This document shows, in pieces, positions 1-57,684 of a stretch of 64,000 nt of DNA. The position numbers and the translations under genes are program-made. The DNA is taken from assembly GCF_001677475.2 (NCBI RefSeq), contig NZ_CP015229.1; one strand, 5' to 3'. Source of the stretch: Escherichia coli (GTDB lineage: Bacteria; Pseudomonadota; Gammaproteobacteria; Enterobacterales; Enterobacteriaceae). Below the pieces are notes generated by a model that saw only the letters and a list, made by a program, of their open reading frames with translations, was not told the DNA's origin and ran no database searches. How positions within the stretch are numbered: the stretch's first letter is position 1; every line of letters starts with the position of its first letter.

Positions 1-1
1 G

Positions 2-784
2 ATTAACAGCAACGATAAAGATTATCAAGAATACATTGCCACCTACCCATTGCCAATAGATAGCGCAACACATAAAAAAGTCAAAAAATTAAGACCAGTC
101 TGCATCTCCCACTCTCAACATGGTAACTCGATCACTATTACAACAACTTATCTTCGTCCATTCAAAGAAAGAAGTGCAATTGAAACAAATACACTAAGCC
201 CAGCAACACAAAAAGAACTCAATTGTTTTGATGAAATAATTGGAATAAAAGATAGATACATCCAATGTTTTGACACAATTACTTTTAACTATGTTTCCGG
301 CGAAATAACATTTGAAATCGACATGTGTACAAATCTTAACCATAATGAATTGGAGCGCGCATCAACAAGATATCGTAGAATATTAATGTACCTTTTCCAT
401 AAAGAGAATTCATATCACGTCGCCTTCATTAGAAAAAATATATTTACTGCTATCGATAAACTTTACAAATCTGCCGATGGTACCATTTTAAAACTTGGGC
501 ATGCCACAGGAACAGGCTCAGTAAAAGAAGAAAAAATGAGAAAGAGAAAAGATGATTTAAGGAAGGAAAAATATCATGCCGCAGGCTTAGCGGCAATTGG
601 AGGAAAAACTAATAACTTTAGTATTTCTAAACAATGGAATGGAGCACACAATAACATTTTAACAATGCATGTACCCGGACATTTTTCTTTAATTTCATCC
701 TCGCTACCATTTATAAATCATGTTATAATCGAAGGGTGTGTTTGTAAATCAGATTATGAGTTATTGATGTCAAAGGTTTTCTAA
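2..784 (+). CDS. Hypothetical protein, 5'-truncated by window edge; first visible gene of AT-rich three-gene operon
   Basis: Reading frame is open from position 2 to stop at 782-784 (track ORF 50..784 begins at an internal TTG); stop abuts the ATG of the next gene; visibly AT-rich. Confidence 0.45.
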   Translation: MNSNDKDYQEYIATYPLPIDSATHKKVKKLRPVCISHSQHGNSITITTTYLRPFKERSAIETNTLSPATQKELNCFDEIIGIKDRYIQCFDTITFNYVSGEITFEIDMCTNLNHNELERASTRYRRILMYLFHKENSYHVAFIRKNIFTAIDKLYKSADGTILKLGHATGTGSVKEEKMRKRKDDLRKEKYHAAGLAAIGGKTNNFSISKQWNGAHNNILTMHVPGHFSLISSSLPFINHVIIEGCVCKSDYELLMSKVF

Positions 785-1177
785 ATGAATAAGCAGGAAA
801 TGAAAGATATCATACAACATTCTTTTGCTACCGACAGCAAAGTTGGTTTTGCATGTATGAATATTTATCATTACCTGCTTAATGAAGATCTGGATAATTT
901 AAAATATATAACATTCAATAACTTGCAAAAAGTCAGTAATGTTGATCAAAGTATCCTTTACGAGGCAATTACTTATCTATCTGGAGAAAAAGCACCAATA
1001 TTATCAATCGGATACGAATATATTGATGGTGATGACATTTTTGAAATCTCTCAAGATGAGTTAAGCAAAATATATTCAGAAGGAACATTTTATTTCGATG
1101 GCAAACCAGTCCTCAATTGGCAGTCGAAAGTTTACATTTACTTTTATGCATCAGAGTTCTGGAAAGGCCTAGAATGA
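785..1177 (+). CDS. Hypothetical acidic protein (130 aa)
   Basis: ORF 785..1177; ATG directly follows the upstream stop, and its own stop overlaps the next ATG (ATGA), so it is translationally coupled on both sides. Confidence 0.5.
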   Translation: MNKQEMKDIIQHSFATDSKVGFACMNIYHYLLNEDLDNLKYITFNNLQKVSNVDQSILYEAITYLSGEKAPILSIGYEYIDGDDIFEISQDELSKIYSEGTFYFDGKPVLNWQSKVYIYFYASEFWKGLE

Positions 1178-1839
1178 TGGATAATCAGAATAATTTTACG
1201 TTAGAATCGCTGAAGTTCGCAGCGTCATTCGATGAGAGCGCAGCACGCCTTTACCGAAGAATTACATGCAATTCATACGATAAATTTATTGAAATGTTTT
1301 ATATTGACTTAGAAAAAACAATCAGATTGATTGAAAAAAATGCAAGCTTAATGCAAAACGATGGAGAAGACCGTTTATCTATAGAAATAATTAATATACT
1401 AATTGGCTTCGGATATGATTCTGGTCATGATAATTATATAAATGGGCACTCAGACATTGTTGTAAGTTTCAAAAACTACACATGGATTGGAGAGGCTAAA
1501 ATTCATAGCTCATACGACTATTTAATGGAAGGATTCCATCAATTATGCTCTCGTTACTCCACAGGAAGTGAAGATGATTGTCAAGGAGGATTAATAATTT
1601 ATGTGAAAAGCAACAATGCATTAGATGTCGTAGAGAAATGGAAAAAAACATTAACCTCTAAAAAAGATGACTTTGAAGATTTTTATTTATCCGATTGCAA
1701 AACAAGAGAAAAGTTGAGCTTTTACTCTAGCCACAAACACCCTAAATCTGGATTACCATACAAAGTAAGACATTTCGCTGTAATATTGGGATTTGCACCT
1801 AAAGACAAAAGTGCGAGAACAGCAAAGTCCAGAAAATAA
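1174..1839 (+). CDS. Hypothetical protein with PD-(D/E)xK-like motif (putative nuclease fold)
   Basis: Internal ATG of track ORF 1117..1839 overlaps the upstream stop (ATGA). Protein has GEDRLSIEI ... GHSDIVVSF ... IGEAKI, an E / hydrophobic-D / ExK spacing typical of PD-(D/E)xK nucleases; assigned by eye only. Confidence 0.45.
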   Translation: MMDNQNNFTLESLKFAASFDESAARLYRRITCNSYDKFIEMFYIDLEKTIRLIEKNASLMQNDGEDRLSIEIINILIGFGYDSGHDNYINGHSDIVVSFKNYTWIGEAKIHSSYDYLMEGFHQLCSRYSTGSEDDCQGGLIIYVKSNNALDVVEKWKKTLTSKKDDFEDFYLSDCKTREKLSFYSSHKHPKSGLPYKVRHFAVILGFAPKDKSARTAKSRK

Positions 1840-1869
1840 TAAGTTTTATTATCTGGACCAAGGCTGTTT

Positions 1870-2217
1870 TTATCTATTTAGAATACACATAATACCATCA
1901 ATAAATCCAAGTGCAGTTTGCAACTCCTTTCTAATAGTTCCATCCGAGCATTTCCGCTTCTTTGCGATTGTACGGAGTGAAATCCCGATAACAAAGTGAG
2001 CAATGATCAGCTCATATTCTTCTGGTTTATATTTCCGCAACCGGGCCACACATCCATCAATCATAATTCCTTCATCATCATCGCACTGGAGACGTGACTT
2101 TTTACCGTGTGGTAGAAGCCCCTTGAAACCAGCCGCTATCGGCTGCCAGTCGACACCACTATTTTCTGCTGCAGCCCAAGCCCCCCAACGATCTAAAGCT
2201 TCGTACATATCACGCAT
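1870..2217 (-). CDS. Phage antitermination protein Q-like
   Basis: 115 aa beginning MRDMYEALDRWGAWAAAENSGVDW...GFKGLLP...SRLQCDDDEGIMIDGCVARL, which resembles the Q family of lambdoid/Qin-type prophages; it is the last gene of the minus-strand early-right operon. Confidence 0.55.
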   Translation of the reverse strand: MRDMYEALDRWGAWAAAENSGVDWQPIAAGFKGLLPHGKKSRLQCDDDEGIMIDGCVARLRKYKPEEYELIIAHFVIGISLRTIAKKRKCSDGTIRKELQTALGFIDGIMCILNR

Positions 2218-2474
2218 CAGCGCAGTACCTCCTGCACCAGTTTTTCAAACTTTCCAACTTTGGTTTCCAGCTCCGCCACACAATCCACCAGCTCATCCAC
2301 TGCTTTTTGTGCGCGATGTTTCGCCTGCATCAGTTCCCTGAGCGCTGGTACCATATCCCGACGAATGGCATCTTTTGTTACACCTGTTTTTTCCAGTTGT
2401 TCCGCCTGCCGCAACATTTCCTGTGCCTGTTTACGTAATTGCTCAGGGGTAAAAGTCATTGTCTGGTTGTTCAA
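2217..2474 (-). CDS. Hypothetical small helical phage protein (85 aa)
   Basis: ORF between the DnaB-like gene and Q-like gene on the same strand, with start/stop overlaps to both neighbours. Confidence 0.4.
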   Translation of the reverse strand: MNNQTMTFTPEQLRKQAQEMLRQAEQLEKTGVTKDAIRRDMVPALRELMQAKHRAQKAVDELVDCVAELETKVGKFEKLVQEVLR

Positions 2475-3862
2475 AAGAAACGCTCCATCTTACTGCTGTC
2501 AGTTCGTTTGTTACTGTACCTGCGCGGCTTGGACGGCTGCATTGGTGTGGAAAGAACCAGCGCACTTTCCTGGTCTACGGGCAGAAAATGTCCGTTATAA
2601 AAACGCCGGTAAATCGTTCCCAGAGAACCGTTACGTTGTTTCGTGATATTGATTTCCGCGATACCTCTGGCCTGCGTATCCGGGTTGTACACTTCATCCC
2701 TGTAAAGCATCAGAATGATGTCTGCATCAGCTTCTATTTCTCCGGAATTTTTCAGGTCTGAGTTCATAGGTCGTTTATTGGGTCTGGACTCAACTCCACG
2801 GGAAAGTTGGCTCAGCGCAATAACCGGTAATCCACCGGATTTTGCCAGGCCTTTAAGCCCTTTTGATATTTCCCCCACGGCAAGGTCATGACGGCCTGTG
2901 GATCGGGTTTTTATCAGCCCGAGATAATCAACCACCACCAGCGCCGTTTCCGGATGTTTAATCAGGTGGTGTTTCGTTGTTGCGCATATCTCGTCAATGG
3001 TCAGGTTCGCCTGGTCCACCATCCAGATATTGCGTCCGGTCATCAGCTCCACCCCCTTAATGAAACGCGCCCAGTCTTCGTCACCAAAGTGAGAGACAGA
3101 TTTCAGGCGTGATACCGGCATTCCTCCAGCCGCAGATACCATGCGTTCACCAATCTGGATGTTCGCCATTTCCATTGTGAACAGAAGAACACCATGCCCC
3201 TGCTCAGTCACCTTGTCGATGATATCCAGCGCCAGTTCTGTTTTCCCCATCGAAGGGCGAGCCGCGATGAATATCAGGTCGCCAGGCTCCATGCCGCCTG
3301 TTTTTGCGTCCAGTTCATCAATACCGGTCATCAACGTCCTGGATTTCTCCAGCCCCTTATTCCGGCATTCAACACGCTCAACCACCTCGGGAAGCACATC
3401 ATCAATATGTACCGGCTGAATAATGCCCTTTTCCGTCGACAATGAGGCCATCATGTTTTGCGCATCCTTCATGGCATCTTCAGCTGCTTCACAGGTATGC
3501 GCATCGCGTAATTTCTGCAATGCCTCATTCAGTATTTTTTCTGCATCACGCAGTGCAGCATTACGTCGCAGTGCTGCAACATAATGTTCCAGAGATGACT
3601 TCACCCAGGTTTTACGCCCGGAATCAGTAATCACCGGGGCAAGTTCCGGCATCTCATTACACAACAGCACAGGGTCAATCACGCCTGAAACACGGGCCTG
3701 TCGGCAGATGCCTGTGTAGATATCCCGATACGCTCGTACAGAAAAAACGTCTGCCGGCAATGTGGCCAGAATATCCATCACTTCATGATCAGCCCCGCGC
3801 AGAAAGAACGCACCAATGACAGCGCCTTCCAGGTCATCGTTACGCCAGACTGGAGTTGTCAT
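2471..3862 (-). CDS. Replicative DNA helicase, DnaB-like (phage-encoded)
   Basis: Walker A AARPSMGKTELAL, SQLSR motif and DnaB-like N-terminal domain; start taken at MTTPVWR, which overlaps the upstream stop (ATGA). Confidence 0.8.
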   Translation of the reverse strand: MTTPVWRNDDLEGAVIGAFFLRGADHEVMDILATLPADVFSVRAYRDIYTGICRQARVSGVIDPVLLCNEMPELAPVITDSGRKTWVKSSLEHYVAALRRNAALRDAEKILNEALQKLRDAHTCEAAEDAMKDAQNMMASLSTEKGIIQPVHIDDVLPEVVERVECRNKGLEKSRTLMTGIDELDAKTGGMEPGDLIFIAARPSMGKTELALDIIDKVTEQGHGVLLFTMEMANIQIGERMVSAAGGMPVSRLKSVSHFGDEDWARFIKGVELMTGRNIWMVDQANLTIDEICATTKHHLIKHPETALVVVDYLGLIKTRSTGRHDLAVGEISKGLKGLAKSGGLPVIALSQLSRGVESRPNKRPMNSDLKNSGEIEADADIILMLYRDEVYNPDTQARGIAEINITKQRNGSLGTIYRRFYNGHFLPVDQESALVLSTPMQPSKPRRYSNKRTDSSKMERFF

Positions 3863-4746
3863 GCTGCCACACCTCTGATACGAGAACGATAGCTGGGCCA
3901 GTTGAACGACAACCAGTTGCGCCCCCCGTCTGTGATCCTGTCGGCAATGCGGGGGCTGATAAACGCCCACAACTCTTCCGGTGAAAGGTTGCTGATCAGA
4001 ATGGTGGGCAGGATACTTTCGTACCGGGCATTGATAATTTCCTGCAAAATAGCCATTTCAGCCGCGCTGCCAAACTGAACACCAACTTCGTCGATGATCA
4101 GCAAATCCATTGACGCATAATGCTCAATAACTTCATCCGCTGTTTTTTCGCTATCATTCCGCCAGCAGTTTTTCACAGCACGGGTAAGGCGCATCACGTC
4201 GGTGATCTCCACGCTGGCCAGATGATTACGGATGATGTGTTTTGCCATTGATACCGCCAGATGATTTTTCCCGGTACCGCAACTGCCAGTCATAACAAGA
4301 CTGGTGCCGTTCTCCAGCATATCTGGCCAGTTCTCCGCATAGCGGCGACAGGCTGCAAGATTTCTGGCTGCGTCAGGATTAACCTCCAGATAGTTATCAA
4401 ACTCACAGTCCCGAAAACGCAGGGCAATTCCGGCGTTATCAGTCAGCTCTTCCGCCTTGAGGGACGACAGCTCCATGGTCAAATCGTTGGCCTCAGCGAT
4501 CAAGCAGTCAGGGCAGCATGAAATTTTTTCTCTGTCCTCGCCATTACGATCGCTCCACACCAGTATATGCGTACTGTATTTACCGTGTTTTTCGCAATAT
4601 CCACGACCATCACGCATCAGGCAGGAACGATAAGGCCATGGCTTTTCGCCCTTCTGAGCGAATGCAATCTCTGCCCGTAACTCATCCATTCGCGCCTGTA
4701 GTCTTTTTTGTTGTTCACGCAGGTTAAACGTCATCATCGCTGTCAC
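3859..4746 (-). CDS. DnaC/IstB-like AAA+ helicase loader with N-terminal Cys-rich region
   Basis: Walker A GSCGTGKNHLA and Walker B LLIIDEVG; N-terminal CEKHGKY...CCPDC cysteine cluster; sits between the O-like and DnaB-like genes. Confidence 0.75.
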   Translation of the reverse strand: MTAMMTFNLREQQKRLQARMDELRAEIAFAQKGEKPWPYRSCLMRDGRGYCEKHGKYSTHILVWSDRNGEDREKISCCPDCLIAEANDLTMELSSLKAEELTDNAGIALRFRDCEFDNYLEVNPDAARNLAACRRYAENWPDMLENGTSLVMTGSCGTGKNHLAVSMAKHIIRNHLASVEITDVMRLTRAVKNCWRNDSEKTADEVIEHYASMDLLIIDEVGVQFGSAAEMAILQEIINARYESILPTILISNLSPEELWAFISPRIADRITDGGRNWLSFNWPSYRSRIRGVAA

Positions 4747-4747
4747 C

Positions 4748-5662
4748 TCAGAATGTCAATTTGTCACTGGATTTACCGAATTTGTCAGACATGGCTCCCA
4801 GGCCAGACAGGACATCGACCTGTCGCTGTCGCCCACCTCCGGGAGCGGCTGGTTGTTGCCAGAAGTCTTCGAAGTGACGATCGGGGCCAAAGAACGTCGC
4901 TGCCTGCTTCACGAACTGTGTGCCGGTATTTCCTGTAGCACGTACCCAGGCGGCATAGCGTTTCACGCCATCAAGCATGGTTTCGGGTGTCACACCTTCC
5001 CTGATACGGGCTTTCCAGGCTTTGAAAGCAGCTGACTTGGAATTGCCACCAGCACGTTTGGGATATTCCTGCCAGGCCTGTTCAAATTCCGGTGAATATT
5101 CCTGTCGGGCAGAACGTGCTGGTGCAGACGCGTCAGCGGATGCACCAATAGTGTTTTTACTCTCTGTAGTATTCTCTGAAGTAATCTCTGTTGTATTCTC
5201 TGTAAGATCGAAATTGGTTTTCCCTTCTCCGCGGCGAGGGGTTTCCCGTGTCCGCGGTGAAGGCTTTCCCTCCTCCGCGAAATTGGGTTTTACAGTTTCC
5301 CGAAAACGGGTTTCCCCATTTCGGGAAAACTGATTGTTTTCATTGATAATTTCATTAAGGCGCTCACAATCTATACGGTAGAACATTTTGTGCTCAAGAC
5401 GCTTGTTGGTTTCAACCAAAATGCCTCTGGACACAAGATGCTTACGCGCTACAGCCTGTTGTTCAAATGTAAGTCCGGTTTCGTGTTGTATCTCTTCACG
5501 CGTTTTATGTACGCCTTCCGCTGCATGTGCTTTATCCTGCCAGTAAAAAATCTGACCAAAGAAAATAACAGCGTGCGGACTTCCCATGTATTTAACGAGC
5601 CCAGGGTAATAAGCAACCGGATGTCCAAAATCGAGCAGAAGATCAGACGGACGCATAGCCAC
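4748..5662 (-). CDS. Phage replication initiation protein (O-like replisome organiser)
   Basis: 304-aa ORF immediately upstream of the DnaC/DnaB-like pair; contains internal iteron-like direct repeats; start may be MAMRPS (5662) or MRPS (5656). Confidence 0.6.
   Translation of the reverse strand: MAMRPSDLLLDFGHPVAYYPGLVKYMGSPHAVIFFGQIFYWQDKAHAAEGVHKTREEIQHETGLTFEQQAVARKHLVSRGILVETNKRLEHKMFYRIDCERLNEIINENNQFSRNGETRFRETVKPNFAEEGKPSPRTRETPRRGEGKTNFDLTENTTEITSENTTESKNTIGASADASAPARSARQEYSPEFEQAWQEYPKRAGGNSKSAAFKAWKARIREGVTPETMLDGVKRYAAWVRATGNTGTQFVKQAATFFGPDRHFEDFWQQPAAPGGGRQRQVDVLSGLGAMSDKFGKSSDKLTF
5168..5205. repeat. Short direct repeats (ATTCTCTG-like, three copies) inside the O-like gene
   Basis: gtATTCTCTGaagtaATCTCTGttgtATTCTCTGtaag; encodes the repetitive TENTTEITSENTTES stretch. 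Confidence 0.45.
5214..5329. repeat. Iteron array (about five ~23-bp direct repeats); candidate phage replication origin inside the initiator gene
   Basis: Repeats GGTTTTCCCTTCTCCGCGGCGA / GGGGTTTCCCGTGTCCGCGGTGAA / GGCTTTCCCTCCTCCGCGAAATT / GGGTTTTACAGTTTCCCGAAAAC / GGGTTTCCCCATTTCGGGAAAAC; this mirrors the lambda ori-within-O arrangement. Confidence 0.5.
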
Positions 5663-5876
5663 CTCCCAGGCGTTTAAACATTTTTCCGGACTGAAACGCC
5701 ACCAGCGGATAACTCAGGGTATGAGTACGTCCCTGAACCTGGCAGACAACCTTCTGGCTTTCTGTATTGACCAGGCAAACCCGCAGAACGTGACCGTTGC
5801 TGGTGGTGAACCACTGCCCCACACGGGGGCAACGGTTGTATCGGTGATACAGGGAATTAACGACGCGGCGAATCAT
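5643..5876 (-). CDS. Hypothetical small protein (77 aa)
   Basis: ATG at 5874-5876 has a strong GGGAGG Shine-Dalgarno 7 nt upstream and overlaps the upstream stop (ATGA); lies just upstream of the O-like gene. Confidence 0.45.
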   Translation of the reverse strand: MIRRVVNSLYHRYNRCPRVGQWFTTSNGHVLRVCLVNTESQKVVCQVQGRTHTLSYPLVAFQSGKMFKRLGGGYASV

Positions 5877-6379
5877 GGGCGCGCCTCCCATTGATTACGG
5901 CGGAAAGCAGTGTGAGTCAGGCTGGTTTCGGCCTCATGGAATGCTTCAATGCAGCTCTCGTAGTACCGCATTGTGCGCAGACTTAACCCAAGCTGAAGCA
6001 TCATCAGACCATCAAGAGTTATGTAATAACCACGCAAAGAATCGCCATAAAGGTGATAAGTGCCGGGTATGAAATTACGGGTGAAAAACTCGCGCGAGCA
6101 GTTCAGATACTCGATTTTGTCGACGATATTCTGGTGCATGCGCTTGAAGTGGCAGGCAACATGCAGAGAGAAAATAACGGCCTTGCCGTTGACGGTCTCA
6201 ATTTTGAGGAATGGGTGAGTAGTGGTGGTAGTCATGGTGACAGCCCCGGTAGTCAGTTTGTTAGAAAACTCACCACCAAGGCTTTCCACGACCTTATAGG
6301 TGGTGAGACGTACAGGGGTGGAAATACCGGAGACTACCGAACCCGGCCCGACCGAAGTCGGCCCTGTACGCCCCACCAT
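5873..6379 (-). CDS. Hypothetical protein (start uncertain; C-terminal part of a long open frame)
   Basis: Frame is open from 7174 to 5873 but its upstream part overlaps the well-supported FinO-like gene; only the portion downstream of that gene is called. The stop overlaps the next ATG (ATGA); no convincing RBS was found at ATG 6379 or GTG 6472. Confidence 0.3.
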   Translation of the reverse strand: MVGRTGPTSVGPGSVVSGISTPVRLTTYKVVESLGGEFSNKLTTGAVTMTTTTTHPFLKIETVNGKAVIFSLHVACHFKRMHQNIVDKIEYLNCSREFFTRNFIPGTYHLYGDSLRGYYITLDGLMMLQLGLSLRTMRYYESCIEAFHEAETSLTHTAFRRNQWEARP

Positions 6380-6533
6380 AATTTGGGCGTAGCAATGCTC
6401 ATGACACGAAAAAACCGCATGAGCGCGGTTATGCTCAGTAATCAATTTCGGGTTTCCACGCCCGGCATCCACTTTACAAGATGCCTGAATAGTGTAACGT
6501 CCCGAAATTAAGGAATCAATGTTTTGATAAAAT

Positions 6534-6926
6534 TCAGCGATTAGACGCTTCTTTTCTACCCATATTAACTTTGAACAAGAGCTCCATACGACGAGTCCAG
6601 ATACCACGTTCTTTGAGTTGTGCTCTGGCTTCTTCGCGTTCAGATACGGATGTTCTGACAATACGATTTCCCGCCAGATTGCGGCGATATTCTCCAAACG
6701 CGACTGACTGAAGGTATGAATCTGAGCTTTTGTACTGATAGATGGCTCTTCGAAGGCTGTTTTTGTATTCCTTAGGTATATGTCCGAGATCGGCAAAGAG
6801 CTCATGAACGATATCGTGAACAAGCGGAACCACTTTGTATGGAATAACAAAGAAGCTTTCTGGATAGCGTTCAGCCAATACTTTAATGATTTCTTTATTT
6901 GCAAGATGCCTTGCTTTTCTTCCCAT
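6534..6926 (-). CDS. FinO/ProQ-domain RNA chaperone-like protein
   Basis: KEIIKVLAERYPESF...PL...SLRRAIYQYKSSDSYLQSVAFGEYRRNLAGN...EREEARAQLKE aligns by eye with the ProQ N-terminal FinO domain (KEVIAFLAERFPHCF...RSALRLYTSSWRYLYGV...RVDLDGN...EHARKQLEE). Confidence 0.7.
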   Translation of the reverse strand: MGRKARHLANKEIIKVLAERYPESFFVIPYKVVPLVHDIVHELFADLGHIPKEYKNSLRRAIYQYKSSDSYLQSVAFGEYRRNLAGNRIVRTSVSEREEARAQLKERGIWTRRMELLFKVNMGRKEASNR

Positions 6927-6989
6927 ATACCATTCTCCATTACTCTAGATATCAGAATGATATATCCAGGTTTTTCAAGCAGTTCAAGC

Positions 6990-7163
6990 TTATGCTGGTG
7001 CTTCACACTCAACAAAATCACGACGAAACAACCACAGCGGGCTGAAGCATTCATGCGGATAACCATCACGCAGGTAAATAACCCGCTGTGTTTCAGGCTC
7101 CCAGCGTATAACGTGGACACGACGCCCCCTTCCGTCACGGAACCAGCGATTGAGTACTTGCAT
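6990..7163 (-). CDS. Hypothetical small protein (weak call)
   Basis: Short ORF between the Lar-like and FinO-like genes; ATG at 7163 lies 8 nt after the Lar-like stop; RBS is weak. Confidence 0.2.
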   Translation of the reverse strand: MQVLNRWFRDGRGRRVHVIRWEPETQRVIYLRDGYPHECFSPLWLFRRDFVECEAPA

Positions 7164-7170
7164 TTGGATT

Positions 7171-7389
7171 TCATTCCACACCTACCCCTTCACGCTGATT
7201 CCAGTCATGAACAGCACGTTCTTTCGAATCAGGAATCTGGTTTGCGTTACAGCAAGTACATGCGACGTAATAACCATCATCGCCATCCAGAAAATATTTC
7301 ACCTCAATGAGTTGTACTTCCGGATTTCCGCAGAATGGGCAAGGTTTCAGCTCGACATCACCAGTTACACACGTCTTGATTTGCATCAT
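7171..7389 (-). CDS. Lar-family restriction alleviation protein (anti-restriction)
   Basis: ELKPCPFCG...GYYVACTCCNA...AVHDWNQR matches the Lar/restriction-alleviation zinc-ribbon signature (KPCPFCG ... C-x-x-C ... WN-R). Confidence 0.65.
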   Translation of the reverse strand: MMQIKTCVTGDVELKPCPFCGNPEVQLIEVKYFLDGDDGYYVACTCCNANQIPDSKERAVHDWNQREGVGVE

Positions 7390-8240
7390 TTGTTCTCCTG
7401 TAAAAGATTCGCAAGCTCAGTGTTATGGGTAAACAGCCCATCCCATGTTTTCTTCATCGGTAGTTCGCCGTTCAGATAATGGCGATATAACCAGGCAGCA
7501 CCTTTGGGCTTTAGTAACGGTTTAAAGGTGTCTCGCATTTCCCCATTTTCCTGCTCAACCCGGTTGTAGCGCTCCGTCAGATACTGATCACGTGCATACG
7601 CTTTTACACGCCAGCGTGGATACATAGCCTCCGGACGGTCGTCATACAGCCAGTTACGCTCTTCAAGGAACGCATTAATCTGACGAGTGTTTACACCGTT
7701 GAGTTGTTTGCAGAACTGCACAGGAGTGATGCCATCGGCGAGATGACTTTCGAGTTTGCTGATGTAGCGAGCCTGACGCTCTGCATACCCGAGAGCAAGG
7801 CGCTCGGATTTTTTGGCTTCAATCCACGCTTCAGCAGCAGCGATCGGATCGTCAAAGTCTGGAATAGTGTTTGAAGAAGGCGTTGCTTTACGAAAATACG
7901 CCTGCTCCATTTTTTCGAAGAACGACCAGGCCTCGTCTGTATCGACGATTTTTGACATGCGGGCAGCGCCGCGTTCTGTCCAGAGGACAAGTGATGTTGT
8001 ATGTTTATTAACCGACTCGCTAAAAGATAGTCGGAAAGATTTCAGCTCATCACTGCTGATTTTGAAAAAGTGTTTACCCTCAACGAAACGATCTTCATTT
8101 CGAATGTAGTTCTGTTGTATACGGATTGGCGTTGTTCCATATCCCGCCGCCAACGTTTCGGTGGTAACTACACGTACTCCCTGCCACTCAATAACTGGCA
8201 AGTTTTCAGGGTTGACTAATTTTTGTTTATTGATCATCAT
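7386..8240 (-). CDS. Phage antirepressor-like protein (ORF6N/KilA-N-type N-terminal domain)
   Basis: N-terminal IEWQGVRVVTTETLAAGYG...IRNEDRFVEGKHFFKI is characteristic of the ORF6N antirepressor domain; located immediately downstream of the Cro-like gene. Confidence 0.6.
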   Translation of the reverse strand: MMINKQKLVNPENLPVIEWQGVRVVTTETLAAGYGTTPIRIQQNYIRNEDRFVEGKHFFKISSDELKSFRLSFSESVNKHTTSLVLWTERGAARMSKIVDTDEAWSFFEKMEQAYFRKATPSSNTIPDFDDPIAAAEAWIEAKKSERLALGYAERQARYISKLESHLADGITPVQFCKQLNGVNTRQINAFLEERNWLYDDRPEAMYPRWRVKAYARDQYLTERYNRVEQENGEMRDTFKPLLKPKGAAWLYRHYLNGELPMKKTWDGLFTHNTELANLLQENK

Positions 8241-8316
8241 GAAATCCCCTTACTAATCAGAATAAGTCGGGCTGACGGAGTGCGGCCCGGCTTTTCTTTT
8301 TTCGTTCAGTAACCGT

Positions 8317-8583
8317 TCATCGCATGGACATTTCTGATGAATCACTCTGCCCATCTTCCGTGTGCGCTAAGCTTGGATGTGCTCCACGCTTGTTTTTGCG
8401 CGAGCGGTTCTTGTACAGGTTCAGATCGCACTTCAGAGCTCCATCAGTTAGTTTCTCAAGCTCCAGAGCACGCCCTTTAGGTACAATTGCTCCCCATCGA
8501 GTAACAGCCACTTGCGATACATCTAAAGCGCGCGCAACCTTTGCTTTAGTTCCAAAAAACGCAACTGCGTCTTGTGTTTTCAT
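8317..8583 (-). CDS. Cro/YdaS-like HTH DNA-binding protein
   Basis: 88 aa with N-terminal HTH (KAKVARALDVSQVAVTRW); divergent from the XRE repressor gene across a ~95-bp intergenic region. Confidence 0.55.
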   Translation of the reverse strand: MKTQDAVAFFGTKAKVARALDVSQVAVTRWGAIVPKGRALELEKLTDGALKCDLNLYKNRSRKNKRGAHPSLAHTEDGQSDSSEMSMR

Positions 8584-8678
8584 ACCACCTCCAAATAACT
8601 TATGTTTATCTTACTTCTATAACCATAGTTAGTTCAAGTTAACATATATTAATGATTCAACTAGTAGAGAGGATCCCC
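8584..8678. promoter_or_regulatory. Divergent promoter/operator region of the prophage immunity switch (predicted)
   Basis: AT-rich spacer between divergent HTH genes containing partially symmetric AGTTCAAGTTAAC / TTCAACTAGTA elements; operator sites not defined. Confidence 0.3.
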
Positions 8679-9065
8679 ATGGAAATAAGCGAACGCATTA
8701 CTATGAGACGCAAAGAGTTAGGACTTACCAAACTAGCCCTAGCCAAGACGCTAGGGCTGTCAGGTGTCAGCATATTGAAGTGGGAAAATGGGCAAAACGA
8801 GCCAAGCGGGAAAAACCTTTTCGCTCTCAGTGACGCTCTAAAATGCTCCCCGGCATGGTTGCTTTTTGGTGACGAAGATAAGTCTCCGACGCCAGTTGAT
8901 GAACTTCCAACAGAATTAGACGAGCAGCAAACTCAACTACTGAGTTTATTCAATCAACTACCAGACTCGGAAAAAACCATATTAATCAATGAGATATCAG
9001 CAAGAGTTGAGAACTTCAACAAACTATTTGAAGAATTACTAAGGGTCAGAAAACAACGCAAATAA
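8679..9065 (+). CDS. XRE-family HTH repressor (CI-like, short, no peptidase domain)
   Basis: MEISERITMRRKELGLTKLALAKTLGLSGVSILKWENG has an HTH_XRE signature; GAGAGGA RBS before ATG 8679; no S24/LexA-like autocleavage domain is visible. Confidence 0.6.
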   Translation: MEISERITMRRKELGLTKLALAKTLGLSGVSILKWENGQNEPSGKNLFALSDALKCSPAWLLFGDEDKSPTPVDELPTELDEQQTQLLSLFNQLPDSEKTILINEISARVENFNKLFEELLRVRKQRK

Positions 9066-9070
9066 TTATA

Positions 9071-9104
9071 AAACGGCAATCTATTCAGTAGGTTGCCGTT
9101 TTCT
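9071..9104 (+). terminator. Rho-independent terminator downstream of the repressor gene
   Basis: Hairpin CGGCAATCTATTCAGTAGGTTGCCG followed by TTTTC. Confidence 0.45.
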
Positions 9105-9209
9105 CACCCCCAAAAAACTAACTTTTATTAATTTTTACTTGCCCTAAAAGTTATCTTTAGTTATTGTTTGTGGCGTTTAGTTAATGCAACAAAAGTTATA
9201 GACGAAATT

Positions 9210-9668
9210 ATGAACACTCAAAATGGCGAACTTGACTTATTTGACATAGCAGACGAATCACAGATTTTGAACGATTTACTCTCAGTTATTGCATCCGTAA
9301 TCACACATGCAAGCAACGAAATAAACGAAATTGAATCGTGCATGAGCATTGCCTGGAGGATTAGCTCTTCAATTAATGAAAACTTACTTAAGCTCACCAG
9401 AACAGCACAAGCTAAATCAGCGCGTTCATGCAAACAAAATTTAGCTATTAATTCACAGAATCGTCTTCGCCACCAACGCGAAGCCTGCGGCTTAACAACC
9501 GCCGAACTCGCCAGGCTGCTCGATCTCGATGAAGAAATTATCATCCAGTGGGAGAGCGGAGAGTATGAACCAACTATCAGTATGCTTATCCCACTGGCAA
9601 ATGTTCTTGGTTGCGACCCGATATGGCTGTTAACTGGTAAACCAACAGGTGGGGATACTTGCGCATGA
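9210..9668 (+). CDS. Hypothetical protein with C-terminal XRE-type HTH domain
   Basis: C-terminal GLTTAELARLLDLDEEIIIQWESGEYEPTISMLIPLANVLGCDPIWLL is a typical HTH_XRE; the N-terminal ~90 aa are unassigned; start codon uncertain (track ORF begins at 9168). Confidence 0.5.
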   Translation: MNTQNGELDLFDIADESQILNDLLSVIASVITHASNEINEIESCMSIAWRISSSINENLLKLTRTAQAKSARSCKQNLAINSQNRLRHQREACGLTTAELARLLDLDEEIIIQWESGEYEPTISMLIPLANVLGCDPIWLLTGKPTGGDTCA

Positions 9669-9907
9669 AAAACTGTGATGCTTACCACATATGTCTCATT
9701 GGTGAATTGCTTGATTGCATACAAAAAAGCGCTGAGCGCAATAATAAAAATATAACATACGGTAATCTGGCAATAATTTCAGAGGATATTAAGAGCATCG
9801 CTCTTAAATTCAAGAGCGATGCGAACATTGACGACACTATTTACGCTTATCTTGCGAAAATAGTTGACGGATCCAAAAACCAGCCTCTGGATGAGGACCG
9901 TCAGTAA
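9665..9907 (+). CDS. Hypothetical small protein (80 aa)
   Basis: ATG overlaps the upstream stop (ATGA); its 3' end overlaps a convergent minus-strand ORF. Confidence 0.35.
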   Translation: MKNCDAYHICLIGELLDCIQKSAERNNKNITYGNLAIISEDIKSIALKFKSDANIDDTIYAYLAKIVDGSKNQPLDEDRQ

Positions 9908-10064
9908 AAAATTCATTTGATGAACATGAGAAGTGCTTCATAAAATTTACTTTATCTTCAGGTGAAACCACCTGACGAATTAATGCAGAGATAGCGACTT
10001 TGTGCCACATTAATTCTTTTTTGAGCGCTGAAATTTCTTTTTCAAGTTGCTCTTCGTTAATCAT
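9837..10064 (-). CDS. Hypothetical small coiled-coil protein (75 aa)
   Basis: ATG at 10062-10064 is preceded by a GGAGGA Shine-Dalgarno; the protein (MINEEQLEKEISALKKEL...) is predicted helical; it overlaps the 3' end of the plus-strand ORF 9665..9907. Confidence 0.4.
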   Translation of the reverse strand: MINEEQLEKEISALKKELMWHKVAISALIRQVVSPEDKVNFMKHFSCSSNEFFTDGPHPEAGFWIRQLFSQDKRK

Positions 10065-10244
10065 TTTATCCTCCATTGAGAGCTGAATTGTAAATGGAGA
10101 CCAACACGCGGCTACGTGTGGTCGTGCGCCGGACACGGATAAGCATCCGGTAACTAATTATCAATCATTGAGGAAACAGTCTCAATATGAAAACACTTCT
10201 GAGACTCGCTATATAGCAGAACATATAAGTCAGCTGAGGAAGCC

Positions 10245-10610
10245 ATGAAAAAGTTCGAAAACATAACTGTTCTCCATGTTGATGACTTTGATTATACAAA
10301 CCCGGAACTTCTCCCGGAGGTTGTAAAGGCAATAGATGTTGCCGATATAGTGATTAGAGGAAAGAGAATTGTCAAAAACAGGCTCGCATGCACTTCAGGA
10401 GCAATGACAGAAACAACCTCACAACAAGATGATTATGAAGGCATTTGTCTGGAGCCTGACTCATTTGCGGTAAATGTTTATCATTTATTGCATGCAACAC
10501 AGGTATTACATATGTCAAGTAATCACGAAACAAAAACACTTGGCAGCGAAATTCTGAATTTTGCATGTGAATATGCAAAAGCTGCTGCCGAAAAAGAATT
10601 AGCGCAATAA
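10245..10610 (+). CDS. Hypothetical protein (121 aa)
   Basis: ORF with GAGGAA RBS upstream of the ATG; no recognised motifs. Confidence 0.45.
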   Translation: MKKFENITVLHVDDFDYTNPELLPEVVKAIDVADIVIRGKRIVKNRLACTSGAMTETTSQQDDYEGICLEPDSFAVNVYHLLHATQVLHMSSNHETKTLGSEILNFACEYAKAAAEKELAQ

Positions 10611-10806
10611 CAATAAATATTCCCTGAATGTTTATTACGGTTTTATCGCCGGGGATTGTTGCAACCTTTATTCGCAGGAGATTATGTTATGACTTTCCTG
10701 AAACATAAGGCATCGTATAAAACTGCCTGCCTCATTGCACAACATGGAGATTCTTATCTTCATATAGCCAACCTGTATTTGCGCAAAGCATATGGGAGAT
10801 AAGTCA

Positions 10807-10995
10807 ATGGAAGAAAAACAACTGAACATAACACATGAAAAAGTAAGAGTGTTGCTAACTATTGAAAATGGAAAAGTAATTTACTCAAAACATCTGCTGG
10901 ATAATGAATTCGTTGGCTGCATGGATACATTTCTGTGGATGGCAAAAAGAGCAGGCTACACGATTATTCCACCAGCAAAGGAGCAAACATTATGA
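10807..10995 (+). CDS. Hypothetical small protein (62 aa)
   Basis: Internal ATG with GGGAG RBS; its stop overlaps the next ATG (ATGA). Confidence 0.35.
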   Translation: MEEKQLNITHEKVRVLLTIENGKVIYSKHLLDNEFVGCMDTFLWMAKRAGYTIIPPAKEQTL

Positions 10996-11573
10996 ATCAT
11001 TCAGAGTTCCAACCAGAAGTTACGCCACATGGCATAAAAATTGGCAATACAACCATTGATTATGTTGAGGCCGTACAGCGACTTAATGATGGTGAGTACG
11101 ACAATCCATACTGGCACGGTTTAAGAATCATGCAATGTATTGCGGAAGCCGATGATGCCGGATTCCTGGGAAGATTTTCAGTCGATCTGAAGGTTGCTCA
11201 GTGGCGCTGGCTGTATGTAGCGAAATTTATCAGTGAAGAGGAAGACAAGAACGGCACCATTGATATCCCTAACGATAACGGAACTACAGATCGCGCAGTT
11301 ATTTATAAGGGGAAGCATGGTTGCATGAGTATATACCCAGGGCCACTTCGCATTGCCCTGCAAAACCATGTCGAATGGGGATTCATTGAAAAATATGGCG
11401 AAGCTGAAGGCATGGGGCGAGTTCTGTTTCTCTATCAAAAAATGCTCATCGCAGATCCTGATAATGGCTTCATTGTCTCTGCTATGGGACGAGAAGGGCT
11501 TGAACTTCTTCTGGATGAAATGATTCACGATCTGAATACTCATGGTATGCCAGAAACACCAGTGGCACATTAA
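10992..11573 (+). CDS. Hypothetical protein (193 aa)
   Basis: ATG overlaps the upstream stop; no recognised motifs. Confidence 0.5.
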   Translation: MNHSEFQPEVTPHGIKIGNTTIDYVEAVQRLNDGEYDNPYWHGLRIMQCIAEADDAGFLGRFSVDLKVAQWRWLYVAKFISEEEDKNGTIDIPNDNGTTDRAVIYKGKHGCMSIYPGPLRIALQNHVEWGFIEKYGEAEGMGRVLFLYQKMLIADPDNGFIVSAMGREGLELLLDEMIHDLNTHGMPETPVAH

Positions 11574-11575
11574 AT

Positions 11576-11854
11576 ATGTCAAATCAGAATAAAATTAATG
11601 TATTTCAGGTTGAGTCAAAACATAAAACACCTGTGATAAAACACGTTCGCCGCCATACACGCATCTATACGCCAGAAGAGTTTATGGCAATGCCAATGAT
11701 AAAGAAACTCATACGAGACAATCCCGGTCTCGTTGCTATAGATAAAAACAGTGGAGAAATAATGTTATCACGTGAGATTGCCGAAATTTACTGTAGCGTG
11801 AATAACAGTAAAAAGTTGAAAAAGGCAATCAGAAAGATATCAGGAGGAGCATGA
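11576..11854 (+). CDS. Hypothetical basic protein (92 aa)
   Basis: ORF immediately after the previous stop; its own stop overlaps the next ATG. Confidence 0.45.
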   Translation: MSNQNKINVFQVESKHKTPVIKHVRRHTRIYTPEEFMAMPMIKKLIRDNPGLVAIDKNSGEIMLSREIAEIYCSVNNSKKLKKAIRKISGGA

Positions 11855-12039
11855 ATATTTATTTCAGAATAGTCATATCACTGGCAATTATCGCATGCAT
11901 TTACGGATTACTCGTCCCGTTTCTGATATCAATGAAGGATACGGTAGCGGTAATTTCTGGCTTTGCACTGACGTTTCTGACCCCGCCATGCATTTATGCC
12001 ATTTATAAGGGGCTTTCTTTCACTAAGGATAAAAGATGA
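11851..12039 (+). CDS. Small hydrophobic membrane protein (62 aa)
   Basis: Two hydrophobic stretches (IVISLAIIACIYGLLVPFLI and VAVISGFALTFLTPPCIYAIY); translationally coupled on both sides (ATGA overlaps). Confidence 0.45.
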   Translation: MNIYFRIVISLAIIACIYGLLVPFLISMKDTVAVISGFALTFLTPPCIYAIYKGLSFTKDKR

Positions 12040-12863
12040 AAAAAATTATTTTTTCTTTAGCCATTGTTCTGCCTGCCATTGGCCTTGTCGGTTGTGATCG
12101 TGTTGAACCAGGTAATGTTGGCATCAAGGTAAATAAACTGGGCGACGACAAAGGCGTCGGTGAGGTGGTCGGTGTTGGTCGCTACTGGACTGGCTGGAAT
12201 ACTGAAGTTTACATCTTCCCCACCTTCAAGCAAATGAAGACCTACGATGAACCGTTCAGTTTCCAGATGAGTGACGGTACAACCATCGGCTATCACATTG
12301 GCGTGGCCTACAAAGTTGATCCATCCAAAGTTACCACGGTGTTTCAGACTTACCGCAAAGGCGTGGATGACATTACCGACACTGACCTGCGCCAGAAGAT
12401 CGCCGACGCACTCAACCGACTGGCCAGCAAAATGACCACTGACAAATTTATCGACGGCGGGAAGTCTGAACTACTGGATGCAGCTCTTAAAGACATTCAG
12501 GCAGAGATGACACCTATCGGTATTCAGGTAATGAGCCTCTCATATGTGGGTAAGCCGGAGTACCCGCCTACTGTTATCGACAGCATTAATGCCAAAGTCA
12601 CGGCGAACCAGAAAACACTGCAGCGCGAGCAGGAAGTTAAACAGCGCGAAGCGGAAGCCAACATGTTGCGCGCGGAAGCTGCCGGACAGGCTGATGCGAT
12701 TCGCACAAAAGCCCAGGCCGAAGCCGATGCTATTCGTTTACGCGGTGAAGCTCTGCGCCAGAACCCCGGTGTTATGGAGCTGGAAGCCATCAATAAATGG
12801 AACGGCACACTGCCGCAATACATGACCAGCGGTGCCAATACACCATTTATCCAGGTTAAATAA
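12036..12863 (+). CDS. SPFH/band-7 (stomatin/prohibitin-like) domain lipoprotein
   Basis: Signal peptide with lipobox LVGC; body resembles SPFH domain proteins, followed by an Ala/Glu/Gln-rich coiled-coil (QREQEVKQREAEANMLRAEAAGQADAIRTKAQAEADAIRLRGEA). Confidence 0.6.
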   Translation: MKKIIFSLAIVLPAIGLVGCDRVEPGNVGIKVNKLGDDKGVGEVVGVGRYWTGWNTEVYIFPTFKQMKTYDEPFSFQMSDGTTIGYHIGVAYKVDPSKVTTVFQTYRKGVDDITDTDLRQKIADALNRLASKMTTDKFIDGGKSELLDAALKDIQAEMTPIGIQVMSLSYVGKPEYPPTVIDSINAKVTANQKTLQREQEVKQREAEANMLRAEAAGQADAIRTKAQAEADAIRLRGEALRQNPGVMELEAINKWNGTLPQYMTSGANTPFIQVK

Positions 12864-56917: not shown

Positions 56918-56994
56918 TGGTGCATCCGGGAGGATTCGAACCTCCGACCGCTCGGTTCGTAGCCGAGTACTCTATCCAGCTGAGCTACGGATGC
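56918..56994 (-). tRNA. argQ: tRNA-Arg (anticodon ACG)
   Basis: Reverse complement is GCATCCGTAGCTCAGCTGGATAGAGTACTCGGCTACGAACCGAGCGGTCGGAGGTTCGAATCCTCCCGGATGCACCA; name assigned by position in the array. Confidence 0.85.
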
Positions 56995-57096
56995 ATCGGG
57001 AAAACTTATTTTACTGCTGATATTGATACCGCTACTAAAGCCATATCAAATAAGAAAATCCATCTTAACCATCATCACTGATGATTACGGAGAATA

Positions 57097-57173
57097 TGGT
57101 GCATCCGGGAGGATTCGAACCTCCGACCGCTCGGTTCGTAGCCGAGTACTCTATCCAGCTGAGCTACGGATGC
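57097..57173 (-). tRNA. argZ: tRNA-Arg (anticodon ACG)
   Basis: Identical 77-nt tRNA-Arg sequence; second copy. Confidence 0.85.
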
Positions 57174-57235
57174 ATCGGGAAATTTATTTTACTGCTGATA
57201 TTGATACCGCTACTAAAGCCATATCAAGTAAGAGA

Positions 57236-57312
57236 TGGTGCATCCGGGAGGATTCGAACCTCCGACCGCTCGGTTCGTAGCCGAGTACTCTATCCAGCTG
57301 AGCTACGGATGC
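57236..57312 (-). tRNA. argY: tRNA-Arg (anticodon ACG)
   Basis: Identical 77-nt tRNA-Arg sequence; third copy. Confidence 0.85.
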
Positions 57313-57376
57313 ATCGGGAAACTTACTTTACTGCAGATTTTTTGATACCGCTACTAAAGCCGTATCAAGTAAGAGA

Positions 57377-57395
57377 TGGTGCATCCGGGAGGATT
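57377..57395 (-). other. Truncated tRNA-Arg fragment (3'-terminal ~19 nt only)
   Basis: TGGTGCATCCGGGAGGATT matches the 3' end of the tRNA-Arg copies, then diverges into unrelated sequence. Confidence 0.4.
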
Positions 57396-57511
57396 ACTCG
57401 CCTTGCGGCTCGCCCTTCGGGCCGTTGCTAAAGCAACGTTATCCTTCCTGGTGCTTGCGGCTAGTACCGCCACCTCTTCCACATCTTCATCGCTGAAGAT
57501 TACGGATAATA

Positions 57512-57588
57512 TGGTGCATCCGGGAGGATTCGAACCTCCGACCGCTCGGTTCGTAGCCGAGTACTCTATCCAGCTGAGCTACGGATGC
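57512..57588 (-). tRNA. argV: tRNA-Arg (anticodon ACG)
   Basis: Identical 77-nt tRNA-Arg sequence; fourth copy, 3 nt from serV. Confidence 0.85.
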
Positions 57589-57591
57589 AAA

Positions 57592-57684
57592 TGGCGGTGA
57601 GGCGGGGATTCGAACCCCGGATGCAGCTTTTGACCGCATACTCCCTTAGCAGGGGAGCGCCTTCAGCCTCTCGGCCACCTCACC
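57592..57684 (-). tRNA. serV: tRNA-Ser (anticodon GCU)
   Basis: Reverse complement is GGTGAGGTGGCCGAGAGGCTGAAGGCGCTCCCCTGCTAAGGGAGTATGCGGTCAAAAGCTGCATCCGGGGTTCGAATCCCCGCCTCACCGCCA, with a long variable arm. Confidence 0.85.

Follow-up and report, generated by a model that had tools for sequence, protein, structure and literature searches.

What is the AT-rich three-gene cluster that abuts the Q antiterminator gene of a lambdoid prophage in Escherichia coli, and what might it do for its carrier? The cluster opens the 64,000-nucleotide stretch of DNA analyzed here (contig NZ_CP015229.1 of assembly GCF_001677475.2; hereafter the window) and encodes three proteins, P1, P2 and P3, the first of which is cut by the window edge (Table 1). 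We find that the trio is a real, uncharacterized candidate defense system. With modest confidence, we lean toward reading it as a prophage-borne three-gene anti-phage (or anti-mobile-DNA) system, carried as cargo in the interval from Q to the late promoter, with its transcription running against that of the late operon.

A conserved three-gene unit

The 268 nt of gene 1 that fall outside the window could be read from matching E. coli genomes, and no further co-oriented gene lies upstream; the system therefore consists of three genes, with products of 350, 130 and 221 aa. A first-pass annotation, made from the window's sequence, had regarded the system as incomplete here, which proved wrong beyond the missing start of gene 1. 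It had also taken all three genes to be coupled by start/stop overlaps. This applies to genes 2 and 3, which share a true 4-bp overlap (ATGA, 1174-1177), but the TAA of gene 1 (782-784) directly abuts the ATG of gene 2 at position 785. Its observation on base composition is well founded: windowed GC content is 0.30-0.35 over positions 1-2000 versus 0.48-0.55 over the replication genes at 2000-6000, and the module as a whole is about 33% GC, compared with about 50% in the prophage.

DNA was fetched around relatives of the trio, yielding 72 loci from species genomes and 50 viral contigs, and homologs of P1, P2 and P3 were called by iterated hidden Markov models on all open reading frames (ORFs) of these loci. 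The arrangement P1-P2-P3, in identical order and strand, is found in 111 fetched loci, with a -4 bp overlap as the commonest junction. Because order and strand are kept across these loci, the genes are real and not chance ORFs. The species-genome loci derive from Alpha-, Beta- and Gammaproteobacteria, many Cyanobacteria and one Bacteroidota. A query with P3 returned about 35 clusters in an annotated protein collection, and an exhaustive P3 profile search recovered 728 clusters at 50% identity among 1.84 billion representatives. The pattern search started from P1 used a 13-sequence subset, the full P1 alignment being too divergent, and every viral-contig locus recovered from this starting point also contains P2-P3 (20/20). 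A word-indexed search with the P2 profile gave standalone homologs only and no new fusions. Within E. coli, 22 of 5,426 complete genomes carry trio DNA, at least 99.4% identical, and the trios of Enterobacter bugandensis and Siccibacter turicensis prophages are 65-66% identical to that of E. coli.

No characterized family had been recognized for any of the three proteins at first pass, and database searches lead to the same result. Pfam provides no match for P1, P2 or P3 singly, nor for any member of the P1 and P2 alignments; NCBIfam 20.0, its antiphage models included, contains nothing below E 0.07 for the trio proteins; and sequence and profile searches of the Protein Data Bank (PDB) were empty for all three. 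The best matches in PADLOC-DB 2.0 (LmuB for P1, a CARF model for P2 and PDC-S54 for P3) have E values of 0.007-0.009 and are not significant. Each protein belongs to a PHROG of unknown function.

Predicted structures of P1, P2 and P3

Structure prediction yielded a confident model of P1, an RdgC-like alpha/beta fold without a P-loop domain, in which the base, center and tip domains of the RdgC fold are present; the RdgC-like assignment was reached by two methods. The lack of a P-loop contradicts a candidate identity raised by the PADLOC search, the SMC-like ATPase LmuB of Lamassu, whose match covers 83 residues at E 0.007. Unlike RdgC, a recombination-associated protein that forms a ring-shaped DNA-binding dimer, P1 begins with about 65 additional residues in a helical N-terminal region and is invariably linked to P2-P3. 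Nine Lys/Arg columns are conserved in the P1 family.

For P2 and P3, a single chain with a 25-residue linker between the two proteins was modeled from a locus-paired alignment of 36 sequences. The fused model has a predicted local distance difference test (pLDDT) score of 88.8 and a predicted template modeling (pTM) score of 0.80, with low confidence confined to the linker. That the pTM score is this high despite a disordered linker suggests that P2 and P3 share a defined interface. P2 is predicted to be a winged helix and, as noted at first pass, is small and acidic (isoelectric point [pI] 4.5 and net charge -10 in E. coli; median pI 4.7 over 91 homologs).

P3 is predicted to be restriction-endonuclease-like, with the alpha-beta-beta-beta-alpha-beta core of the PD-(D/E)xK superfamily and invariant residues in the catalytic positions. 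Eight residues (E65, D66, D94, E107, K109, Q123, R127 and Y128) are invariant in 30 homologs down to 30% identity, and E65/D66, D94, E107 and K109 are also invariant in the 36-sequence paired alignment. In the model, E65/D66 (motif GEDRL) open helix alpha1, D94 (HSDIVV) starts a strand, E107 and K109 (E107-A-K109 in GEAKI) lie on the next strand, and Q123/R127/Y128 are on the helix that follows it. P3 accordingly has the strand acid, the (D/E)xK on the next strand and the helix alpha1 acid of the superfamily. A PD-(D/E)xK-like arrangement had been seen at first pass, and D94 and E107-x-K109 were correctly identified; the acid then assigned as the remaining member, E71 in RLSIEI, is variable, and the invariant pair is E65-D66. 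We propose that P3 is a metal-dependent PD-(D/E)xK nuclease of BamHI-like predicted structure. It has no sequence-level match to the BamHI/BglII/BstYI/OkrAI type II endonucleases (Pfam at E<=10; PDB profile search) and differs from them by an N-terminal helical extension and two obligate partner proteins, and the conserved P1-P2-P3 unit lacks a cognate methyltransferase. An identification as a BamHI-like type II restriction-modification (R-M) system was rejected for want of both BamHI-family sequence membership and a methyltransferase in the conserved unit; the methyltransferase gene near the E. coli copies is a late-region gene, present too in prophages without the trio.

P2 and P3 recur with other front ends

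In natural variants of the trio, P2-P3 emerges as an adaptor-plus-nuclease unit that can be transferred, with P1 in the position of a DNA-engaging front end: the same domains occur in STAND, HsdR, type ISP and P1-less contexts. In six cyanobacterial loci, and in about 10 of the top 150 representatives, the P3 domain forms the C-terminal end of proteins of 712-1,226 aa that begin with a P-loop STAND-type NTPase (NACHT- or NB-ARC-like) followed by HEAT or TPR repeats. No P1 or P2 is encoded near these fusions. Compared with the nuclease effector domains of Avs/STAND proteins, P3 in these fusions is C-terminal, after the repeat region. The P3 match in the STAND fusions starts at profile position 30-35, so the first ~30 residues are specific to the three-gene form of P3, and in the standalone protein they would contact P2.

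P2 in turn is found as the C-terminal domain of enzymes of 1,167 and 1,763 aa. An operon in a Sphingopyxis metagenome-assembled genome (MAG) encodes HsdM, HsdS and an HsdR with a complete P2 at its extreme C-terminus, followed by P3; a Rhizobium genome encodes a near full-length type IIG/ISP restriction-methyltransferase with P2 at its C-terminus, again followed by P3. Both loci lack P1. P2-P3 without P1 also occurs on an insertion of about 4.6 kb in a Synechococcales MAG (JAAFHZ010000028.1; positions 6040-10640 of fetched locus L008), where P2 has an 82-aa N-terminal extension. This insertion is flanked by a duplicated gene fragment, in that 5752-6039 repeats the start of ORF 10647-12290, and it carries in addition a divergent 866-aa protein of unknown type.

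Taken together, the variants point to a modular immune effector. In this respect P2-P3, or P3 by itself, resembles effector modules that unrelated immune systems have acquired recurrently, such as the nuclease-protease pairs described in PMC12799240, joining as it does P1, HsdR, type ISP and STAND front ends. The component proteins differ, and P2-P3 includes no protease.

A cargo slot between Q and the late region

The E. coli trio sits between the Q gene and the late region. Its genes run against late transcription, in the orientation of the repressor and integrase genes, and the LexA-family repressor gene is about 6.7 kb away. The convergent ORF whose stop lies 30 bp from the end of gene 3 was called Q-like at first pass, and RefSeq indeed annotates it as 'antiterminator Q family protein' in 22/22 trio-bearing E. 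coli genomes; Pfam Phage_antitermQ is recorded for the same-position gene in the Enterobacter and Siccibacter prophages. Following late transcription downstream, one meets a 198-bp ORF, the DNA methyltransferase gene, tRNA genes, then stx2e, stx1a or TerB/DUF3927, and finally the lysis genes. Carriers include Shiga toxin (Stx) 2e and Stx1a prophages, seven deposited Stx1a-converting phages and non-Stx lambdoid prophages. The E. bugandensis and S. turicensis trios have the same location: they converge on Q and precede the holin and lysozyme genes.

Related prophages fill this slot differently. In O103:H2 strain 12009 it is empty, the antiterminator gene being followed by 222 bp and then the same late region. 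E. coli PSJ-22 (NZ_AP027634.1; positions 3595-5158 of fetched locus L138) instead carries a different, overlapping two-gene cassette next to the convergent Q gene, whose products (343 and 179 aa) are both annotated 'hypothetical' and have no PADLOC match; it is another candidate cargo or defense module. Homology of the left flank stops 40-55 bp before the start codon of gene 1. When the joined flanks were used as a query, no exact empty site with this Q allele was recovered; all that came back were mosaics with another antiterminator, or another cassette. The separate acquisition suggested at first pass is borne out by the empty slot, the alternative cassette and the 22/5,426 occurrence in E. 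coli, and the data support a view of the Q-to-late-promoter slot as a cargo hotspot and of the trio as a cargo module.

Upstream of gene 1 and outside the window is a 260-bp divergent intergenic region (positions 11472-11731 of fetched locus L001), where a short GC stem on the late-operon strand precedes a T8 run, resembling a tR'-type terminator. The Q-dependent late promoter is probably located here, just upstream of gene 1, and with the promoter so placed the module puts about 2.1 kb between Q and the site where it acts. The module had been thought to stand where the late promoter would normally lie; it does adjoin Q, but the promoter appears displaced to the far side of the module and not replaced by it. 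At the other end, a hairpin across the P3 stop codon (13-bp stem, -13.8 kcal/mol, z -2.65 versus shuffled sequences in RNA folding) was missed by a consensus terminator scan and may, tentatively, act as a bidirectional terminator. No Rfam family was found in positions 1-2600.

Table 1. Coordinates of the trio and of adjoining features in the window
Feature	Position	Strand	Remarks
Gene 1 (P1), last 260 codons and stop, predicted RdgC-like fold, proposed DNA-binding sensor or clamp	2..784	+	Full protein 350 aa, WP_000646552.1
Gene 2 (P2), 130 aa, predicted acidic winged-helix protein, proposed adaptor	785..1177	+	
Gene 3 (P3), 221 aa, predicted BamHI-like PD-(D/E)xK nuclease, proposed effector	1174..1839	+	
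Inverted repeat (hairpin) across the P3 stop codon, in the gap to Q	1827..1858		Candidate bidirectional terminator
Convergent Q antiterminator gene; right-hand boundary of the cargo slot, outside the system	1870..2217	-	RefSeq annotation

Outside prophages, the trio is found next to genes for restriction or other conflict systems. In Lysobacter (positions 1-5887 of fetched locus L003), an OLD-family ATPase/TOPRIM protein and a UvrD helicase, a Gabija-like pair, are encoded immediately upstream of the trio, and the locus is a conflict-system island. A 207-aa protein and an HTH-Peptidase_M78 protein are encoded beside the Gabija-like pair there, and downstream are an H-NS-like gene and an RHS toxin locus. 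The Serratia trio adjoins an MmeI-type R-M gene with a DEAD helicase and T5orf172, and in Cedecea the trio is on an integrase island beside a cytosine (Dcm-type) methylase and DUF4928.

Some other features of the window were recorded in passing. Positions 8800-11000, between the early genes and the integrase end, form a second AT-rich stretch of the prophage (GC 0.34-0.40) that may hold further cargo genes. A 433-aa ORF (5873-7174, minus strand) lies between the replication genes and ORF 7386-8240. Far outside the prophage, at 56918-57684 on the minus strand, are four tRNA-Arg(ACG) genes and one tRNA-Ser(GCT) gene, which we take to be ordinary chromosomal genes.

Evidence for and against a defense function

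The fusions to R-M and STAND proteins, the defense-island neighbors of some copies and a machine-learning prediction indirectly support a defense reading of the trio. The last of these comes from DefensePredictor (DeWeirdt, Mahoney and Laub, Science 2026; PMC13092281). Table S10 of that study, which includes 1,041 E. coli clusters with a predicted, uncharacterized defense protein, has an entry for the P2 cluster (WP_001041173.1) as a 'Predicted novel defense gene' with a mean log-odds of 6.28; the entry gives no HHblits or Foldseek link to known defense proteins. We found no description of the trio beyond this table entry in literature searches by accession, for Stx-phage defense, and for RdgC/RexA combined with a nuclease, and two 2026 discovery papers do not describe it. 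Nor did these searches turn up a defense role for any RdgC-like protein coupled to a nuclease.

We infer a defense function, DNA binding by P1 and contacts among P1, P2 and P3. In the mechanism we envisage, P1 would use the DNA-clasping fold of the RdgC/Iml3 type to bind invading or replicating foreign DNA; P2, the acidic winged helix, would bridge P1 to P3; and P3 would then cut DNA, whether foreign or host, by means of E65/D66, D94 and E107-x-K109. We further speculate, much more tentatively and as a possibility we consider rather doubtful, that the RdgC fold serves here as a new type of immune sensor, which clasps foreign DNA at, for example, free ends or intermediates of replication and recombination, and which arms a plug-in P2-P3 unit. 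If this were true, the trio would amount to a counterpart of lambda Rex armed with a nuclease and to a defense family not recognized before, and its position between Q and the late promoter in Stx phages could also tie it to the control of competition among toxin phages.

Lambda Rex is the most instructive comparison for such a sensor. RexA, which acts as the sensor in lambda exclusion, consists of two domains in an RdgC-like fold, and its DNA binding is non-specific (PMC11077077). RexA and P1 are both RdgC-like in fold, and Rex, like the trio, is prophage cargo expressed in the lysogenic orientation. The two part ways in several respects: Rex sits next to cI, whereas the trio occupies the Q-pR' slot; the trio has no RexB-like membrane protein, its output being a predicted soluble PD-(D/E)xK nuclease reached via an additional adaptor; and P1 has no sequence similarity to RexA, which is not among the structural matches listed for P1. 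The possibility that the trio is itself a Rex system was rejected on the basis of an hhalign probability of 0.2% between the P1 profile and lambda RexA (a single target sequence, with limited power), the predicted solubility of the partner proteins and a locus that is not beside the repressor gene.

Several results weigh against a defense function or against the mechanism proposed for it. The likeness of P1 to RdgC exists at the fold level only, with 9% identity and Foldseek TM scores of 0.36-0.41; hhalign gave the P1 profile a probability of 0.3% against E. coli RdgC, a comparison to a single target sequence that has limited power, and Pfam RdgC matched none of the 86 P1 members. Because these profile comparisons were negative, we claim similarity in fold and not membership in the RdgC family. 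P1 is basic in E. coli, but the median pI of the family is only 6.4, so DNA binding by P1 is not assured. The trio has no ATPase or other obvious switch by which self-DNA would be spared. A promoter scan upstream of gene 1 gave no convincing sigma-70 site. When the 20 nearest large flanking ORFs at ten diverse loci were searched with PADLOC, 2/20 matched, weakly and partially; for this reason we do not claim a general association with defense islands. Finally, the literature holds no experiment on any trio member, and we found none of the three trio accessions among the 118 transcription units tested in the DefensePredictor study; P2 is also missing from its tables of tested or validated units.

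Alternative explanations

The three-gene pattern had been said at first pass to fit either a defense or a toxin-immunity module. The fusions, neighbors and machine-learning prediction discussed above strengthen the former, and toxin-immunity is the less likely of the two. We think it improbable that the trio is a toxin-antitoxin (TA) or addiction module, with P3 as a DNase toxin, the acidic P2 as its antitoxin (perhaps a DNA mimic or active-site blocker) and P1 as a regulator or third component, which would stabilize the prophage or kill the cell upon loss of P2. An antitoxin is expected to be labile, a poor fit to the stable fusion of P2 to the C-terminus of large restriction enzymes; STAND NTPases use P3 as their output domain with no P2 present; conservation of the 350-aa P1 is as strict as that of P2 and P3; and no TA family in Pfam, NCBIfam or PADLOC matches the trio. 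The stricter version of this idea, a type II TA pair composed of two genes with an autonomous small antitoxin, was rejected, given three strictly conserved genes and a P2 that is also an enzyme domain.

The same variants bear on the possibility that the module is an accessory to phage DNA metabolism or lifecycle, which we judge slightly less probable still. Here P1 would modulate RecA and recombination as RdgC does, or the lysis-lysogeny switch as RexA does, together with a structure-specific nuclease, and the prophage would benefit in replication, recombination, induction or the control of late and Stx expression. RdgC is indeed a regulator of RecA and of recombination, and the bias that RexA gives to the lambda switch does not depend on RexB (PMC11077077); true RdgC homologs exist in a few lambdoid phages (PMC12315714); the module lies directly beside Q and the late promoter from which stx is driven; and transcription converging on Q could affect Q expression. 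The trio is nevertheless also found outside prophages (on integrase islands, beside R-M genes or a Gabija-like pair, and within an operon for type I R-M), closely related prophages dispense with it, it is a compositional outlier that lies outside the early-left recombination module, and its P3 domain is in use by STAND NTPases. Least probable in our estimation is restriction without a methyltransferase, either modification-dependent (type IV-like) or sequence-specific, in which P3 is a true endonuclease and P1 and P2 choose the target. This departs from the defense system we favor in target recognition and not in function. Against it, the trio has no McrB-like GTPase or ATPase partner, Pfam reveals no known reader domain for modified bases (such as SRA, YTH or Mrr-N), and the RdgC fold is linked to sequence-independent DNA binding (PMC11077077). 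All three alternatives are less consistent with the fusions and distribution of the trio than is defense.

Implications

Thousands of candidate defense genes have been predicted computationally, and the trio is one well-supported candidate among many. If it is a defense system, it adds a family without sequence relatives among the catalogued systems, and the RdgC/RexA fold gains a second, mechanistically tractable immune role. The way in which RexA senses infection has long been an open question, and a read-out through a soluble nuclease would be easier to study than RexB. A defense function would also mean that a single adaptor-nuclease cassette is common to a stand-alone system, classical restriction enzymes and STAND receptors. 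Lastly, it would identify the Q-to-late-promoter junction in lambdoid and Shiga-toxin prophages as a cargo hotspot, with consequences for how Stx phages compete and for the range of strains able to acquire them.

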